From positions 227,399 through 244,834 of the IMG/VR virus record IMGVR_UViG_638277085_000001: 17,436 nt of DNA; one strand, given 5' to 3'. Below the pieces are notes generated by a model, which did not search any database, was not told the DNA's origin, and was given only the letters and a program-made list of their open reading frames with translations. Numbering within the stretch: the stretch's first letter is position 1; each line of letters begins with the position of its first letter. Below, piece after piece: positions 3,838-7,897 of the stretch. The DNA is from a virus (lineage: Duplodnaviria > Heunggongvirae > Uroviricota > Caudoviricetes > Straboviridae). Position numbers and translations under genes: made by a program.

Positions 3838-3866
3838 ATATTACGGCTTTTTGGTGTAGTCGTCAA
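3838..3866 (-). promoter_or_regulatory. Sigma70-type (early) promoter
   Basis: Minus strand TTGACG-17 nt-TAATAT, just downstream of a terminator and 42 nt upstream of the 394-aa ORF. Confidence 0.7.
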
Positions 3867-3877
3867 CCAATAGATAC

Positions 3878-3902
3878 AAAAAAAGCGCAAAATGCGCTTT
3901 TT
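3878..3902 (-). terminator. Rho-independent terminator
   Basis: Minus strand AAAAAGCGCA-TTT-TGCGCTTTTTTT, ending the 5569->4011 unit. Confidence 0.85.
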
Positions 3903-4010: not shown

Positions 4011-4973
4011 CTATTTATCTAAGTTAAAAATTGTAACATCATCATGAGTCACAAACGATGGTTTGTAACCGTATTGCGGACCAAGGCGATTGAATAACCG
4101 CTTGTACAGACTGATTCGTTTCTCGTTCCCATCTTTGATTGATGTTGCAATTGTCTCACAGTTGTATTTCTTAGCAAAGTTCACTGTTTCATTGACTACC
4201 GTTGCAAATACTTTCATTGGGTTTTCAGAAGCAGTCAGATCATTAGTCCATCCACTCTCACCGCGAACTTGAAAATGCACCTCAACAGCTTGTACAAACT
4301 CAGGCGGATTGAAATTGAAAATCTCATCATTACCACCCCAATCAATGCCTCGCGGTATTAGAATGACGCGATAAACTTGTTTACCTATCTGAAATAGACC
4401 CTCGATTGGTTTCTTGTCACCCACGGGAACGTCGCCTTTCGGGTACATGACTTTCGCGGGCTTGTCAAGTGATTCCGTCAAATTAACCGAAGACAGCCAC
4501 TCGCGCCATGTCTTTTTATTTCCGATTTTCGCAAACGGAATATCGTCATGGTCTAGCCACTGTGCCGAGCGGTCATACGACTGAGAAGTATCAAATCCGC
4601 GGTAATCATCGCCAACCCATAGCCATTTATGATGCCAGATTTGATTGACTTGACGTGGCTTAGAAACAGCACCGTCTTTGTAAGTGATCATCATACCCGC
4701 GGCTGGTTCCTGTACAGTGTCAAATTCAACTGAGTCATAGAACGCAACGCCACCTTTTTTATAGTCAATTCGGACAATGTTCGGTGTGAATTGCGGATTT
4801 GCTATTGATACTTGAGTACGAGCATCAGCAACCATTTGCTTGAACTCGTCAGGAACATAGTCAACGTGAACATATAATGAACCGCCAATGTCTTTACCAA
4901 CGCCCCATTTGCTGCGTTTTACTGCACTACCTTTTCGGGTTTTTAATGTAGCGCGTTCAAAAATTATGCTCAT
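4011..4973 (-). CDS. Two-domain late protein; N-domain resembles the non-catalytic N-terminal domain of DNA-phosphorothioation-associated putative methyltransferases
   Basis: 320 aa, coupled to the upstream gene (GAGG TAA TA ATG). Motifs VGKDIGGSLYVH, NIVRI, FD-x4-P, IWHHK-x5-DY-x2-F and IGNKKTWREWL, then an LTESLDKP linker and a second domain (ENPMKVFATVV...RISLYKRLFNRL). Confidence 0.55.
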   Translation of the reverse strand: MSIIFERATLKTRKGSAVKRSKWGVGKDIGGSLYVHVDYVPDEFKQMVADARTQVSIANPQFTPNIVRIDYKKGGVAFYDSVEFDTVQEPAAGMMITYKDGAVSKPRQVNQIWHHKWLWVGDDYRGFDTSQSYDRSAQWLDHDDIPFAKIGNKKTWREWLSSVNLTESLDKPAKVMYPKGDVPVGDKKPIEGLFQIGKQVYRVILIPRGIDWGGNDEIFNFNPPEFVQAVEVHFQVRGESGWTNDLTASENPMKVFATVVNETVNFAKKYNCETIATSIKDGNEKRISLYKRLFNRLGPQYGYKPSFVTHDDVTIFNLDK

Positions 4974-4975
4974 TA

Positions 4976-5569
4976 TTACCTCGTTGCTGCGTTTGTGATA
5001 TTTCTGATCATACGCACTGCGAATTGAGTGTCGCCTGTCATGGCTGCTGACGCCGCCTTATCGACGTAAAACGTGCTATCTTCGATCATGTTCAAGTGAT
5101 GGTAGATTTCACGAAAATCATGGCGGTCGAACTCTTTAGTGGTGAAACGAAGCGCGCCTGCTTTCTTGTCATCGTCGTGAACACGTTTGTATTCATCAAT
5201 GACTCGAATCATTTCACTAGCGTATTTCTTCATTTCCATGTTATCGAGCTTCAAACGTTTTGCTGCTTGAATTACCTCGTCACGAGGACGCTCAAGTTCA
5301 ATCGCATCTTTAAGAATGTTCAGGCTGTGAATGGTATTCACTGCTGCCTTTTCCATTTGTAATTTGTGATCTTCAAGCGTTCGATTATGCTTTCTCAACT
5401 CACCAGTTGCGGTAGCACTTGCAATCAAGCCAGCAAAAACTCCCCAGAACCCGCCTTTACGCTGCAAGCGTTTCTTAACTTCGCCTTTCGAACCTGCTGT
5501 AATTGCTTGAAATTGAGCCCATTTGCCGCTTTTTCTTGCTTTATCCATTTCTGTTAAAAATTCAATCAT
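4976..5569 (-). CDS. Putative internal head/ejected protein (capsid-targeting-like leader, hydrophobic Gly/Ala helix, helical body)
   Basis: 197 aa. Starts MIEFLTE (L-x-E, gp21-type site). Contains GGFWGVFAGLIASATATG. Preceded by TCTAAATA and RBS AAGGGG. Confidence 0.55.
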   Translation of the reverse strand: MIEFLTEMDKARKSGKWAQFQAITAGSKGEVKKRLQRKGGFWGVFAGLIASATATGELRKHNRTLEDHKLQMEKAAVNTIHSLNILKDAIELERPRDEVIQAAKRLKLDNMEMKKYASEMIRVIDEYKRVHDDDKKAGALRFTTKEFDRHDFREIYHHLNMIEDSTFYVDKAASAAMTGDTQFAVRMIRNITNAATR

Positions 5570-5594
5570 AGTTTTAACCCCTTATTGTTTACTG

Positions 5595-5602
5595 TATTTA
5601 GA
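5595..5602 (-). promoter_or_regulatory. T4-type late promoter candidate
   Basis: Minus strand TCTAAATA (7/8) followed by CAGT, the same tail as the uvsW promoter. It lies right after a terminator and 25 nt upstream of the ATG at 5569. Confidence 0.65.
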
Positions 5603-5610
5603 CGTAAACG

Positions 5611-5637
5611 AAAAAAGGGCGACCGAAGTCACCCTTT
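5611..5637 (-). terminator. Rho-independent terminator with C(UUCG)G loop
   Basis: Minus strand AAAGGGTGAC-TTCG-GTCGCCCTTTTTT. Confidence 0.9.
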
Positions 5638-5651
5638 AACAGTTGGTTAAA

Positions 5652-6278
5652 TTAACCGTAGATTGCTTTGATGTTATCAAAGAACGAAGAAGATTTATTT
5701 ACCTTCGCGATTACGTATGTAGCATTCATCCGAACCATGTTCGATACGTTGATTTTTTCAAGCTCTTCTTTATCGAGATTTGCATCAGTGACAAGTTTTA
5801 GAATGTCGCGTGCATTGTCTCGCAATGCAATTGATGTCAGATAGCGAATTTGCTGCTTTGCTTCAAGTGATTTGAATGCATCAATCGCATCTTGACCAGC
5901 AACTGCAACTGAAAGACCCAGCCCGCGATTAAGTGCGCGAGTCAAAAGCTTCTCCATGCCTTCGATTGGCTTGCGTGGCGTCGCTCGTTTTGGGATGTCG
6001 ATAGCTAGACGACCTTTGTTTTTCAGCGAGTAAACGTGAACTTCACGAACGCCGTACTTCTCAAATCGTGTTACGATGATCTCATCAGAGTTCTGTACGT
6101 TATCTTGTACACGTCGTCGTAGAGTTTCGTTGTACTCGCCGCCATTTAGTGCATAGACAAGTTCAGCAACGGTTAGATCACGATGTGAAAGTAGCTCGAT
6201 AATCGCAGGGCGAAAGTTTTTGCTGCTAACTTTGTCATTTGAAGCAAGTGCTTTGCGTACGATTTCAACGTTTTTCAT
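5652..6278 (-). CDS. Putative DNA-binding protein with N-terminal winged-helix-like region
   Basis: 208 aa, basic. RPAIIELLSHRDLTVAELVYAL...RRRVQDNV...VHVYSL resembles an ArsR/MarR-type wHTH pattern. RBS GAGAG. Confidence 0.45.
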   Translation of the reverse strand: MKNVEIVRKALASNDKVSSKNFRPAIIELLSHRDLTVAELVYALNGGEYNETLRRRVQDNVQNSDEIIVTRFEKYGVREVHVYSLKNKGRLAIDIPKRATPRKPIEGMEKLLTRALNRGLGLSVAVAGQDAIDAFKSLEAKQQIRYLTSIALRDNARDILKLVTDANLDKEELEKINVSNMVRMNATYVIAKVNKSSSFFDNIKAIYG

Positions 6279-6294
6279 AATATATTTCTCTCAA

Positions 6295-6570
6295 TTAAAT
6301 TTCTTTCTCAACGGGAACTTGAATTTCATCAAATTGCGTATCGTGGTATTGCTCATACGCTTCGTGAAAGCTATCAAGTTCATCGTCAACTATAATCTGT
6401 TCGCCGGTCTCGAAAACATACATGATGCTATCGTATAAACCAGTGGCAGTATTGTACATTGGTTCAGTTGTGAATCTCACACCGCACGGCGTGAAAAGCT
6501 CAATTCTGACTTCAGGGACTGGGACTTGCTCTGCATTGTGTACTGCAAAGGCTTGTTCTAATCTAGTCAT
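6295..6570 (-). CDS. Small acidic early hypothetical protein (91 aa, MTRLEQAF...)
   Basis: Start reassigned to ATG 6570 (RBS AGAGAG), because the track's TTG at 6603 overlaps the -10 box. Confidence 0.7.
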   Translation of the reverse strand: MTRLEQAFAVHNAEQVPVPEVRIELFTPCGVRFTTEPMYNTATGLYDSIMYVFETGEQIIVDDELDSFHEAYEQYHDTQFDEIQVPVEKEI

Positions 6571-6582
6571 AATGTGCTCTCT

Positions 6583-6622
6583 GTATTGTCTCAACGAAAA
6601 CAAGTTTAGGTCAAGACAATAC
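6583..6622. repeat. 9-bp perfect inverted repeat straddling the -10 element (operator-like)
   Basis: GTATTGTCT (6583-6591) and AGACAATAC (6614-6622), 22-nt spacer. Confidence 0.6.
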
Positions 6623-6631
6623 TAATGTCAA
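6603..6631 (-). promoter_or_regulatory. Sigma70-type (early) promoter
   Basis: Minus strand TTGACA-17 nt-TAAACT, immediately after the stop of 6632..7120. Confidence 0.8.
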
Positions 6632-7120
6632 TTACTTTTTGCGCCATTTTGCAAGTTTTTCATCGTATTCACTGTGCTTCCACAAATCAAACACGATAGT
6701 ACCGCTCTGGAACCACCACACAAGTGAGATTGTATCATTCAGCTTAGGATCTTTAGGGTTCTTTCCTAAGTAAAGCTCAGTACTCGGGTGCGAGTGGTAG
6801 ATTGCTTTTTTGACAGCGAACTTATATCCGCCTTCTGGCATACCAATTTCTTTCGGTGGGTAGATATTACCCAGATACGCTACTTGATATACTGTGTTTT
6901 TGAACACAACACGAGCCGAGTCAATATTGAAAAGCAAGTTTTGATACTTAGCAGCATTCGGGGCAATCTTCCATTTATTCTTAGGCTTGGTTTCGAGTAG
7001 TTTATCAATCTCGGGTTCTGGTATCAATTTACCGAGATTGTGATTTCCCCATTCTTCCTCAAGAGAAAGACTAATATGAATGCCGTAAAGCGTGTTTTCA
7101 TATTCGTTAAATCGAAGCAT
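6632..7120 (-). CDS. Putative internal head protein; C-terminus tentatively RelE/YafQ/HigB-like
   Basis: 162 aa. Starts MLRFNEY (like T4 IP leaders M-K-T-F/Y-x-E-F). Coupled to the inh paralogue (GAGG TAA caac ATG). C-terminal IYHSH...SLVWW...IVFDLWKHSEYD. Confidence 0.45.
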   Translation of the reverse strand: MLRFNEYENTLYGIHISLSLEEEWGNHNLGKLIPEPEIDKLLETKPKNKWKIAPNAAKYQNLLFNIDSARVVFKNTVYQVAYLGNIYPPKEIGMPEGGYKFAVKKAIYHSHPSTELYLGKNPKDPKLNDTISLVWWFQSGTIVFDLWKHSEYDEKLAKWRKK

Positions 7121-7124
7121 GTTG

Positions 7125-7643
7125 TTACCTCAGATAAGTGAAGCTATTTGAATTGCGTTCATGAACTAACAATTCACCGCGAAGCTTAACCCAATGTTCA
7201 ATTGTCTTTAGATCGTGCGAGTCTCGACGACCGATGTGCCAATCATGAATGATTTCAGCCGATAACGGTTGATATAATTCATCACCGCGACGATATGTAG
7301 GCATCCATTTAGGCTTGAATTCATCTTCAATATCAATTTCGACCTTAATCGCATCAACTGGATCGACTAGAACTACGCCAACACGTTCTAAATGCTCGTG
7401 AGAATCAACGTCAACGCATTCAGCGTCTTTAGCATCTGATTCATCGACTAAATCACAACGAGTCTCAGAATCAATTACAGCGCATTCTAGCGGTACTTCG
7501 GTTTGAGCTACGATTTCATGAGCGATAAGCTCTTCGATCATTTTGCTCTTTGTAAGGGATTTGTCAAGCTCGATGTCATAATGTTTCAACGCGAATTCAG
7601 CGACCCCTCTCTTAGTCTGTTTCTTTAGATATTCAGTAATCAT
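7125..7643 (-). CDS. inh: Inh-family paralogue 2 (prohead protease inhibitor-like)
   Basis: Start reassigned to ATG 7643 (RBS AAGGA), 172 aa. AEFALKHYDIELDKSLTKSKM parallels paralogue 1, and TIEHWVKLRGELLVHERNSNSFTYLR is an Inh C-terminus. It is divergent from uvsW, like T4 inh. Confidence 0.72.
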   Translation of the reverse strand: MITEYLKKQTKRGVAEFALKHYDIELDKSLTKSKMIEELIAHEIVAQTEVPLECAVIDSETRCDLVDESDAKDAECVDVDSHEHLERVGVVLVDPVDAIKVEIDIEDEFKPKWMPTYRRGDELYQPLSAEIIHDWHIGRRDSHDLKTIEHWVKLRGELLVHERNSNSFTYLR

Positions 7644-7651
7644 ATTATTCC

Positions 7652-7858
7652 TTAGCACGTAATAGTGACCCATTCGTTTTGGTTCAAATCAAAGAATGTC
7701 AGAGTATCGACACAACGTTCATTCTTCCTCATTTCTTCGCGATTCGTTTCAAGAACAGGCAAATAATGCTTGCACAATGTGCCGTGATATTTGCGCCCGT
7801 CGCGTTCTAATTTAAGACATCCTTGTGTCATACAGGACATCATTTCTTCTCGTGTCAT
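7652..7858 (-). CDS. Small SH3/Sm-like protein, probably WYL_2 (DUF2693) family
   Basis: 68 aa, RBS GAGGT. MTREEM...G...GTL-x3-YLP...TLTFFDLNQNEW follows the pattern of this common T4-like phage family. Confidence 0.5.
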   Translation of the reverse strand: MTREEMMSCMTQGCLKLERDGRKYHGTLCKHYLPVLETNREEMRKNERCVDTLTFFDLNQNEWVTITC

Positions 7859-7871
7859 GATTTTAGACCTC

Positions 7872-7879
7872 TATAAATA
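7872..7879 (+). promoter_or_regulatory. T4 late promoter for uvsW
   Basis: Perfect TATAAATA, 42 nt upstream of the uvsW ATG. Confidence 0.85.
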
Positions 7880-7889
7880 CAGTTATACA

Positions 7890-7897
7890 TATTTAGA
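7890..7897 (-). promoter_or_regulatory. Late promoter candidate for the leftward WYL_2-inh-internal protein unit
   Basis: Minus strand TCTAAATA (7/8), 31 nt upstream of ATG 7858. Confidence 0.65.

Follow-up and report, generated by a model that had tools for sequence, protein, structure and literature searches.

Candidate head-cargo genes with capsid-targeting-like leaders at the right end of a KVP40-type vibriophage genome

The stretch of DNA analysed here (the window, 17,436 nucleotides) is the final 17.4 kb, at the right end, of the 244,834-bp genome of a KVP40-type Vibrio phage. Genes A to G lie on its minus strand beside uvsW. We propose that three of them, A, B and E, encode head cargo of the T4 type: proteins targeted to the prohead by a short leader, trimmed by the S77-family protease and delivered with the DNA, with A as a two-module precursor. 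Taking sequence comparison and structural models together, we put the probability of this reading, the most economical one, at roughly 0.6. At the DNA level, the locus is 99% identical to the Vibrio phages PVA8, PC-Liy1 and V07, 93% to phi-pp2, and 72-80% to ValKK3, VH7D, QD01, nt-1 and F86, all of which are KVP40-type T4-like jumbo phages. Our gene calls match the deposited ones. In the relatives' records the genes of the locus are annotated as 'hypothetical protein KVP40.0371-0377' (A is KVP40.0371, B is 0372 and E is 0375), and two neighbours are named 'prohead protease inhibitor'. A literature search found no paper mentioning these genes. In T4, inh and hoc diverge from uvsW at the corresponding place; thus, the cluster described here occupies the inh-hoc position.

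In the direction of transcription, the locus consists of a late promoter followed by genes G-F-E, an early promoter followed by D-C and a terminator, a second late promoter followed by B-A and a terminator, and a further early promoter. G (7652-7858, 68 aa), the first gene of the late operon, falls into phrog_18485 and has a weak match, below cut-off, to the Pfam family WYL_2 (SH3-like). F (7125-7643, 172 aa) encodes an acidic paralogue of the prohead protease inhibitor Inh, and its stop lies 4 nt ahead of the start of E (6632-7120, 162 aa), which encodes a basic protein with a leader resembling the T4 capsid-targeting sequence (CTS) in residues 1-22 (nt 7055-7120). The next two genes, D (6295-6570, 91 aa, acidic, isoelectric point (pI) 4.1) and C (5652-6278, 208 aa, basic), carry no leader and are best explained as an early cassette placed between two late units. 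B (4976-5569, 197 aa) is basic (pI 9.5) and begins with the leader MIEFLTE (nt 5549-5569). A (4011-4973, 320 aa) is composed of an N-module (residues 1-167, nt 4473-4973) and a C-module (residues 168-320, nt 4011-4472). On the opposite strand, a second Inh paralogue, H (1720-2211, 163 aa), is preceded by AATAAATA 30 nt upstream.

As the sequence-only reading had claimed, the late-type motif TCTAAATA stands at 7890-7897 and at 5595-5602. Both copies are on the minus strand, the first 31 nt before the ATG of G (7858) and the second 25 nt before the ATG of B (5569). The first copy is kept in ValKK3, QD01 and F86, and the second in ValKK3, QD01, nt-1 and F86. In the rearranged locus of D479, CATAAATA stands 25 nt before the B homologue, the same distance as here. 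From these conserved motifs 25-31 nt upstream of G and B, late (gp55-dependent) transcription may be predicted. The motif of the G-F-E operon diverges from the late motif of uvsW, TATAAATA, on the plus strand (7872-7879). The two are arranged back to back within 7872-7897, 10 nt apart, and this arrangement is kept in relatives. In the nt-1 orthologue of G (L014 6467-6754), the annotated start lies upstream, so that the translation crosses the late promoter region (MIFSLCEFCLNMYNCIY...); this start is probably mis-called. In the Aeromonas phage Aeh1, late promoters carry C at position -12 as a rule (PMC1524935).

Motifs this short could coincide by chance, in which case TCTAAATA would be no promoter here and the genes would be ordinary hyperplastic-region open reading frames (ORFs) of mixed timing. 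Within the window alone, the three matches to T[AC]TAAATA are not significant (three or more occur in 29 of 200 shuffles), and the number of sigma70-like sites equals the shuffle mean. Across the whole genome, by contrast, TCTAAATA lies at most 70 nt upstream of a gene, in the sense orientation, in 6 of 12 cases (5.3% expected, P=1.6e-5) and TATAAATA in 12 of 13 (5.3% expected, P=6e-15). One copy of TCTAAATA precedes a gene whose product is 57% identical to the T4 tail tube protein gp19. Furthermore, motif, spacing and flanking terminator are kept across phages of 72-80% DNA identity. We therefore regard coincidence as very improbable.

The early promoter and the terminators are also found where the sequence-only reading had placed them, and together with the late motifs they are kept in ValKK3, QD01, nt-1 and F86. 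A sigma70-like early promoter (TTGACA-17-TAAACT, 6603-6631, minus strand) begins directly after the stop of E and precedes D-C; the arrangement TTGAC[A/G]-N17 with a -10 box before D is kept in all five phages compared. An intrinsic terminator (5614-5637, minus strand), whose stem-loop is kept in relatives, ends the D-C unit and would also stop transcripts reading through from G-F-E. At 3838-3902, on the same strand, a terminator (3902-3880) ends the B-A late unit and is followed by a sigma70-like promoter (3866-3838) that serves a 394-aa gene. This composite resembles the PeSL elements of nt-1 and KVP40, which have been proposed to mediate cassette shuffling (PMC4122927). The ORFs under sigma70 promoters had been described as leader-free. 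D and C indeed carry no leader, but C (start 6278) follows D after 16 nt without a promoter of its own. The description of the locus as variable needs a similar restriction. It is syntenic in about 44 KVP40-like phages, and the changes are modest: C is missing in nt-1, the C-module of A is exchanged, and D479 is rearranged. 'Variable' thus fits only the module level and deeper lineages.

The N-termini on which the idea of cargo leaders was based, MITEY (F, 7643), MLRFNEY (E, 7120), MIEFLTE (B, 5569) and MSIIFE (A, 4973), are all present, and those of A, B and E are kept in ValKK3, QD01, nt-1 and F86. That of F is not conserved (nt-1 has MIDFLKK and F86 MIETH) and is therefore not treated as a leader. 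The machinery expected to act on such leaders is encoded in the genome: one protein matches Peptidase_S77, the gp21-type prohead protease family (PF03420, E=1.5e-104), and the KVP40-type gp21, gp22 and gp68-like proteins start MELQLLIE, MQIKEQLLE and MKFISE, in parallel to MNEPQLLIE, MLKEQLIAE and MLLIPE in the T4 record. The other T4 leaders are MKTYQEFIAE (internal proteins (IPs) IPII and IPIII), MKTFKEF...ITE (IPI), MELITE (Alt) and MIDKDYIAE (Inh). According to reviews of T4, no more than the first 10 IPIII residues is needed to direct a protein into the capsid, with positions 4 and 7 important for targeting itself and positions 8 and 10 for cleavage; propeptides of 7 (Alt) to 65 (gp23) residues are cut off after Glu (PMC9026906, PMC3012670). 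Aligned with the T4 CTS (M-K-T-[YF]-x-E-F...), E is in register at F4, E6 and Y7 (MLRFNEY, then L-E-E22). For A and B, the agreement is limited to the cut-site rule and the Alt type. The predicted mature forms of A, B and E have pI values of 9.0-9.7, compared with 9.0-9.65 for IPI*, IPII* and IPIII* of T4.

Gene A is the best case among the candidate cargo. As had been noted, the sequence N-L-T-E (residues 164-167, nt 4473-4484) lies between its two modelled domains, and it coincides with the module boundary. Between the KVP40 clade and the ValKK3/nt-1 clade, the N-module is more than 93% identical, whereas the C-module is only 28% identical; the switch occurs right after N-L-[TS]-E, and the alignments indicate that the C-module has been swapped at this boundary. 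In D479, the A orthologue (64% identical, 175 aa) starts MIEFIAE and ends three residues after an L-K-E at the N-L-T-E position.

The N-module contains two invariant blocks, K-G-S..[VI]-K-R and QIWHHKWLWV..DDY..F, and yields nothing above cut-off in Pfam, NCBIfam or other sequence searches. The domain occurs stand-alone (176-180 aa), fused to other C-terminal parts, or inside giant ORFs, among them ORFs of 2467+, 3274 and 4220 aa on the IMG/VR contigs L019, L020 and L032. BFVD holds a further match, at 37% identity, in a 1232-aa protein. By these sequence matches the N-module occurs as one domain among many in giant proteins of the polyvalent type. On L019 and L021, the domain follows regions resembling SAM (S-adenosylmethionine) methyltransferases; the giant ORFs, on L019, L020, L021 and L032, reach 4220 aa. 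A comparison of the N-module with the N-domain of a Dnd-associated putative methyltransferase gave TM scores of 0.39-0.40 for three Atlas clusters, on a poor Atlas model, and no NCBIfam match.

Ahead of the core of this domain, both length and sequence vary among diverse homologues, yet at least 90% of these retain Glu6. Among T4-like contigs from IMG/VR, three AT-rich ones, including one of 135 kb, carry relatives of the N-domain that start MKSFKEFIYE; other relatives start MITFKRFLVE or, on a contig of 368 kb, MIKLKNLLIE. Next to the MITFKRFLVE relative, the following ORF starts MITFKEYMLE and an S77 protease lies 2 kb away. One MKSFKEFIYE relative is among five consecutive ORFs whose products begin MLTFKEFLDE, MKSFKEFIYE, MKTFTKFMSE, MKTFKEYISE and MKSFKEFYKN, all of the form M-x-[TS]-F-x-[EK]-[FY]. 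The run is laid out like the IP cassette arrays of T-even phages and looks like such an array in an uncultured T4-like phage. It adjoins an NMNAT-Nudix gene (L036:2224-5424; the contig has 135,688 bp and a GC content of 29%).

In the AlphaFold model of A (pLDDT 80.7), the N-terminus is disordered and the C-module looks GNAT-like. In VIA, residues 171-320 of the model superpose on 3shp_B with Z 8.9 and a root-mean-square deviation (rmsd) of 3.1 over 109 residues, and most of the top 50 matches are GNAT proteins. The top Foldseek matches in the PDB are all GNAT (E about 2e-3). The alignment also contains a helix N-x-x-R-x-x-L-Y-x-R typical of GNAT motif B, and inspection of it for the acetyl-CoA loop (Q/R-x-x-G-x-G/A) found no G-x-G in the loop region. 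Based on these comparisons, residues 168-320 are predicted to adopt a GNAT-like fold. BLASTP and PHROG searches show that the C-module has paralogues in the N-terminal domains of two further proteins encoded by the genome, L003, which is encoded beside an Alt-like gene, and L006. Both carry L-[CT]-E-A-F-D-R-P at residues 10-17, behind MIIFED... and MKFSEY..., respectively. In BFVD, fold matches of A are multidomain phage proteins with deaminase, Zeta-toxin and ParB/Srx domains and proteins labelled as Alt ADP-ribosyltransferases (ARTs); they fit the theme of GNAT beside ART domains described for polyvalent proteins (PMC5512222). A relationship between the GNAT-like module and the N-terminus of Alt was considered and rejected: hhalign gives a probability of 0.1 against the N-terminal part (260-280 residues) of Alt from T4 and of the KVP40 Alt-like protein, and LTE-A-F-D-R merely looks like ITE-L-F-D-E, which is no evidence of homology.

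In nine members of the E family, F4 and [L/I]-x-E22 are invariant. The model (pLDDT 75.8) is disordered over residues 1-20 (pLDDT 33) and folded from about residue 23. Residues ~45-154 superpose on YoeB over 84 of 88 residues (VIA Z 6.7, rmsd 3.0). Among the VIA matches with Z of at least 5, 11 of 12 belong to the RelE/ParE superfamily (YoeB, RelE, YafQ, HigB and ParE; Z 6.7-5), and Foldseek, with weak E-values (0.03 or worse), points to the same superfamily. Since two independent searches agree, with middling scores, we predict a RelE/ParE-like fold for this region. Beyond this core, E has a helical extension as well as its N-terminal leader, and its C-terminal region contains an invariant H149-x-E151-Y152. 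A UniRef label of the nt-1 orthologue as a JAB domain protein is unsupported by Pfam and by both fold searches. A 6973-aa protein (P0035) with E=1e-10 to the E profile has no single matched stretch and was not used as a relative. A search for wider loci of the family yielded only a VH7D-like contig in IMG/VR and none in two metagenome scans. The D479 homologue (35% identical), directly after an Inh gene by uvsW, starts with a canonical T4 CTS, MKTFSEFHYEN...V-L-D-E, and the Alt-like protein of D479 starts MLTFNELKEN, which compares with MLRFNEYEN of E.

B has no known fold or family: nothing lies above cut-off in Pfam or NCBIfam, and the protein atlas gives no match. Its leader MIEFLTE is invariant in nine full-length homologues. 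The homologue in D479 (39% identical) starts MIEFITE and is followed by the A orthologue.

F and H are assigned to the Inh family by profile and sequence matches. F matches phrog_8608 (E=3e-66) and phrog_1051 (E=4e-4), is related to H by BLASTP (E=2e-7) and has a pI of 4.96; H matches phrog_8608 (E=2e-77) and phrog_1051 (E=2e-12), and its C-terminus matches that of T4 Inh (E=2.5e-7). They are the only two Inh paralogues of the genome, and the Inh-like proteins are acidic (pI 4.9-5.0). The linkage of the candidate cargo genes to Inh, a further element of the sequence-only reading, survives in D479. Though rearranged, this phage has the pair Inh-E close to uvsW and the series Inh-B-A immediately behind gp23. 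The Inh paralogues might control maturation of the cargo.

At the F-E junction (7125-7120) and at L038:8592-9495 in D479, an acidic Inh gene is followed after 1-4 nt by a basic gene of the RelE/ParE fold class, a layout like that of toxin-antitoxin pairs. One can speculate that the Inh paralogues do more than regulate the protease and that each pairs, antitoxin- or chaperone-like, with the basic cargo gene behind it. F would be a keeper of E, holding it harmless inside the producing cell up to its enclosure in the prohead, and mature E would be injected as a ready-made toxin against host translation or replication at time zero; we hold this to be quite doubtful. To our knowledge, no earlier description exists of a virion-delivered toxin that belongs to a toxin-antitoxin fold class and has a keeper of the Inh type.

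A, B and E could instead be accessory proteins of the head core or scaffold. After targeting to the prohead and processing by the protease, they would contribute to assembling the large prolate head or to setting its size, and would then be degraded or expelled instead of acting as injected effectors. The position of B and A in D479, directly behind gp23 among head genes, the linkage with Inh paralogues, and the lack of an enzymatic signature or known fold in B are in line with such a role, and T4 gp67, gp68 and IPIII combine morphogenetic roles with the same type of leader. The presence of the A N-domain in giant polyvalent-type proteins and by methyltransferase-like regions of unrelated phages fits an effector better. 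The fold predicted for E is toxin-like, and an exchange of the C-module of A between clades is unexpected for a structural part. We consider a scaffold role unlikely.

What the sequences show is the order of the genes, their motifs and conservation, their homologies and the predicted folds; from these we infer how packaging, cleavage, injection and function may proceed for T4-type head cargo. A, B and E would be transcribed from gp55-type late promoters, and their short N-terminal leaders would bind the prohead scaffolding core, like the T4 CTS. The gp21-type S77 protease would then cut after [L/I/F]-x-Glu: A after E6 and E167, giving two modules of ~18 and 17 kDa, B after E7, and E after E22 and possibly also after E6. 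After maturation, the basic proteins would stay with the DNA inside the head and accompany it into the host. The GNAT-like C-module of A, its N-module known from giant injected 'polyvalent' proteins, and the RelE/ParE-like fold of E suggest likely roles in early host takeover or counter-defence.

Several observations weigh against this reading. [LIF]-x-E occurs within the first 8 residues in 48 of 372 genes (13%; ~9.5% expected), including clearly non-virion proteins. An example is the homologue of the anti-CBASS protein Acb1 (G000:C1:182506-182961; Pfam PF23474, E=1.7e-46), whose N-terminus fits the motif. The bare motif is thus weak and unspecific evidence. A, B and E are well conserved as a whole among close relatives, and their leaders do not stand out from the remaining parts in this respect. 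With 6 residues in A and 7 in B, the leaders fall short of the 10 residues of the T4 CTS, from which they also differ. The fold assignments of A and E come from shallow alignments (9-13 sequences) with middling scores (Z 6.7-8.9). By sequence, the C-module of A has no GNAT match in Pfam or NCBIfam, only DUF6934 below cut-off, and E has no match above cut-off in Pfam, NCBIfam or a PDB sequence search. Relatives of B occur only within the KVP40-like phage group. For KVP40-like phages, a literature search turned up neither a virion proteome nor an N-terminal sequence or a transcriptome.

The frequency of the motif, which extends to replication-type proteins, together with its loss in F, could mean that A, B and E are late cytoplasmic proteins that are never packaged and have inherited N-terminal motifs with no targeting role. 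Such an origin does not readily explain why the leader of A changes in sequence while the motif stays (MSIIFE to MIEFIAE), why distant family members carry a canonical T4 CTS, or why the leaders are predicted to be disordered. Moreover, [LIF]-x-E is enriched directly behind late-type motifs (15/37 versus 53/335, odds ratio 3.6, P=0.001). We rate unpackaged proteins as rather unlikely, and the comparative data as much stronger than the bare motif.

Additional candidate cargo genes are found elsewhere in the genome. L003 (G000:C1:31688-32569, MIIFED) and L004 (62017-63072, MIIFEN) lie behind TATAAATA and CCTAAATA. L005 (G000:C1:58233-59687, 484 aa, HEAT-like) lies behind TCTAAATA and starts MKLFTEFYQE, in register with the T4 CTS. 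L006 (G000:C1:67502-68353) starts MKFSEYQNELTE, L007 (G000:C1:32600-34264) is Alt-like and starts MIGFQQLTEN, and L008 (G000:C1:156073-157191) has a weak PARP-like match.

Injected head proteins are the first move of a phage against host defences, and their repertoire is almost unknown outside the T-even coliphages. The CTS, cutting by gp21, injection of IPs and Alt, and the shuffling of IP cassettes are known already. What is new is that these vibriophage genes and their families are recognised as probable members of the T4 IP/Alt cargo system; the tie to polyvalent-protein domains, the candidate cargo of the RelE/ParE fold and the Inh neighbourhood rule are new also. If the proposal is true, the combination of a late promoter with an Inh neighbour and a leader that closes with [L/I]-x-E would form a search rule for such cargo in the large marine and aquaculture vibriophages considered for phage therapy, the T4 cargo system would be linked to the domain pool of 'polyvalent' injected proteins, and the RelE/ParE-fold protein and the GNAT-like module would become candidates for time-zero host takeover or counter-defence.

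Several known systems can be compared with these genes. T4 Inh, a minor head protein and inhibitor of the gp21 protease, is related to H and F, which share phrog_8608, and their uvsW-adjacent position is syntenic with T4 inh-hoc. Unlike in T4, there are two paralogues in KVP40 and three in D479, each followed by leader-bearing genes, and F is linked to T4 Inh only weakly (through phrog_1051). With RelE/ParE toxins, E shares a superposition on nearly whole toxins and a basic product encoded behind a small acidic gene; it differs in lacking a sequence-family match, in having as its upstream partner an Inh paralogue, no known antitoxin, and in lying in a late operon of a lytic phage.

The polyvalent proteins of phages and conjugative elements, among which a GNAT family neighbouring ART domains has been described (Iyer et al. 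2017; PMC5512222), resemble A in that its N-domain occurs in ORFs of 2400-4200 aa and its fold matches contain deaminase, Zeta-toxin and ParB/Srx domains. There is no match to a Pfam polyvalent-associated family, the domains here are stand-alone or in two modules, and release is proposed to occur through a T4-type serine protease at [L/I]-x-E rather than a zincin-like peptidase. T4 Alt differs from A, B and E in its ART domain, of which they have none, and, as described above, shows no hhalign relation to the GNAT-like module. It is alike in that MELITE is cut after Glu and that MIEFLTE of B and the internal N-L-T-E of A are of the same type; the phage's own Alt-like protein also bears a leader of this kind, and that of D479 is similar to E.

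The closest parallel is with IPI, IPII and IPIII of T4. The mature parts have no sequence similarity to them, the leaders of A and B, with 6-7 residues, are of another sequence type, and the genes adjoin inh and uvsW, unlike the T4 ip loci. As in T4, these are small, basic proteins encoded by late-type genes, with leaders that have aromatic residues near positions 4 and 7 and an [I/L]-x-E site that is cut by gp21 in T4 and predicted to be cut here. The 19-residue leader of IPI resembles the two-part 22-residue leader of E, and, elsewhere, the A and E families include proteins whose leaders are almost identical to the T4 CTS.

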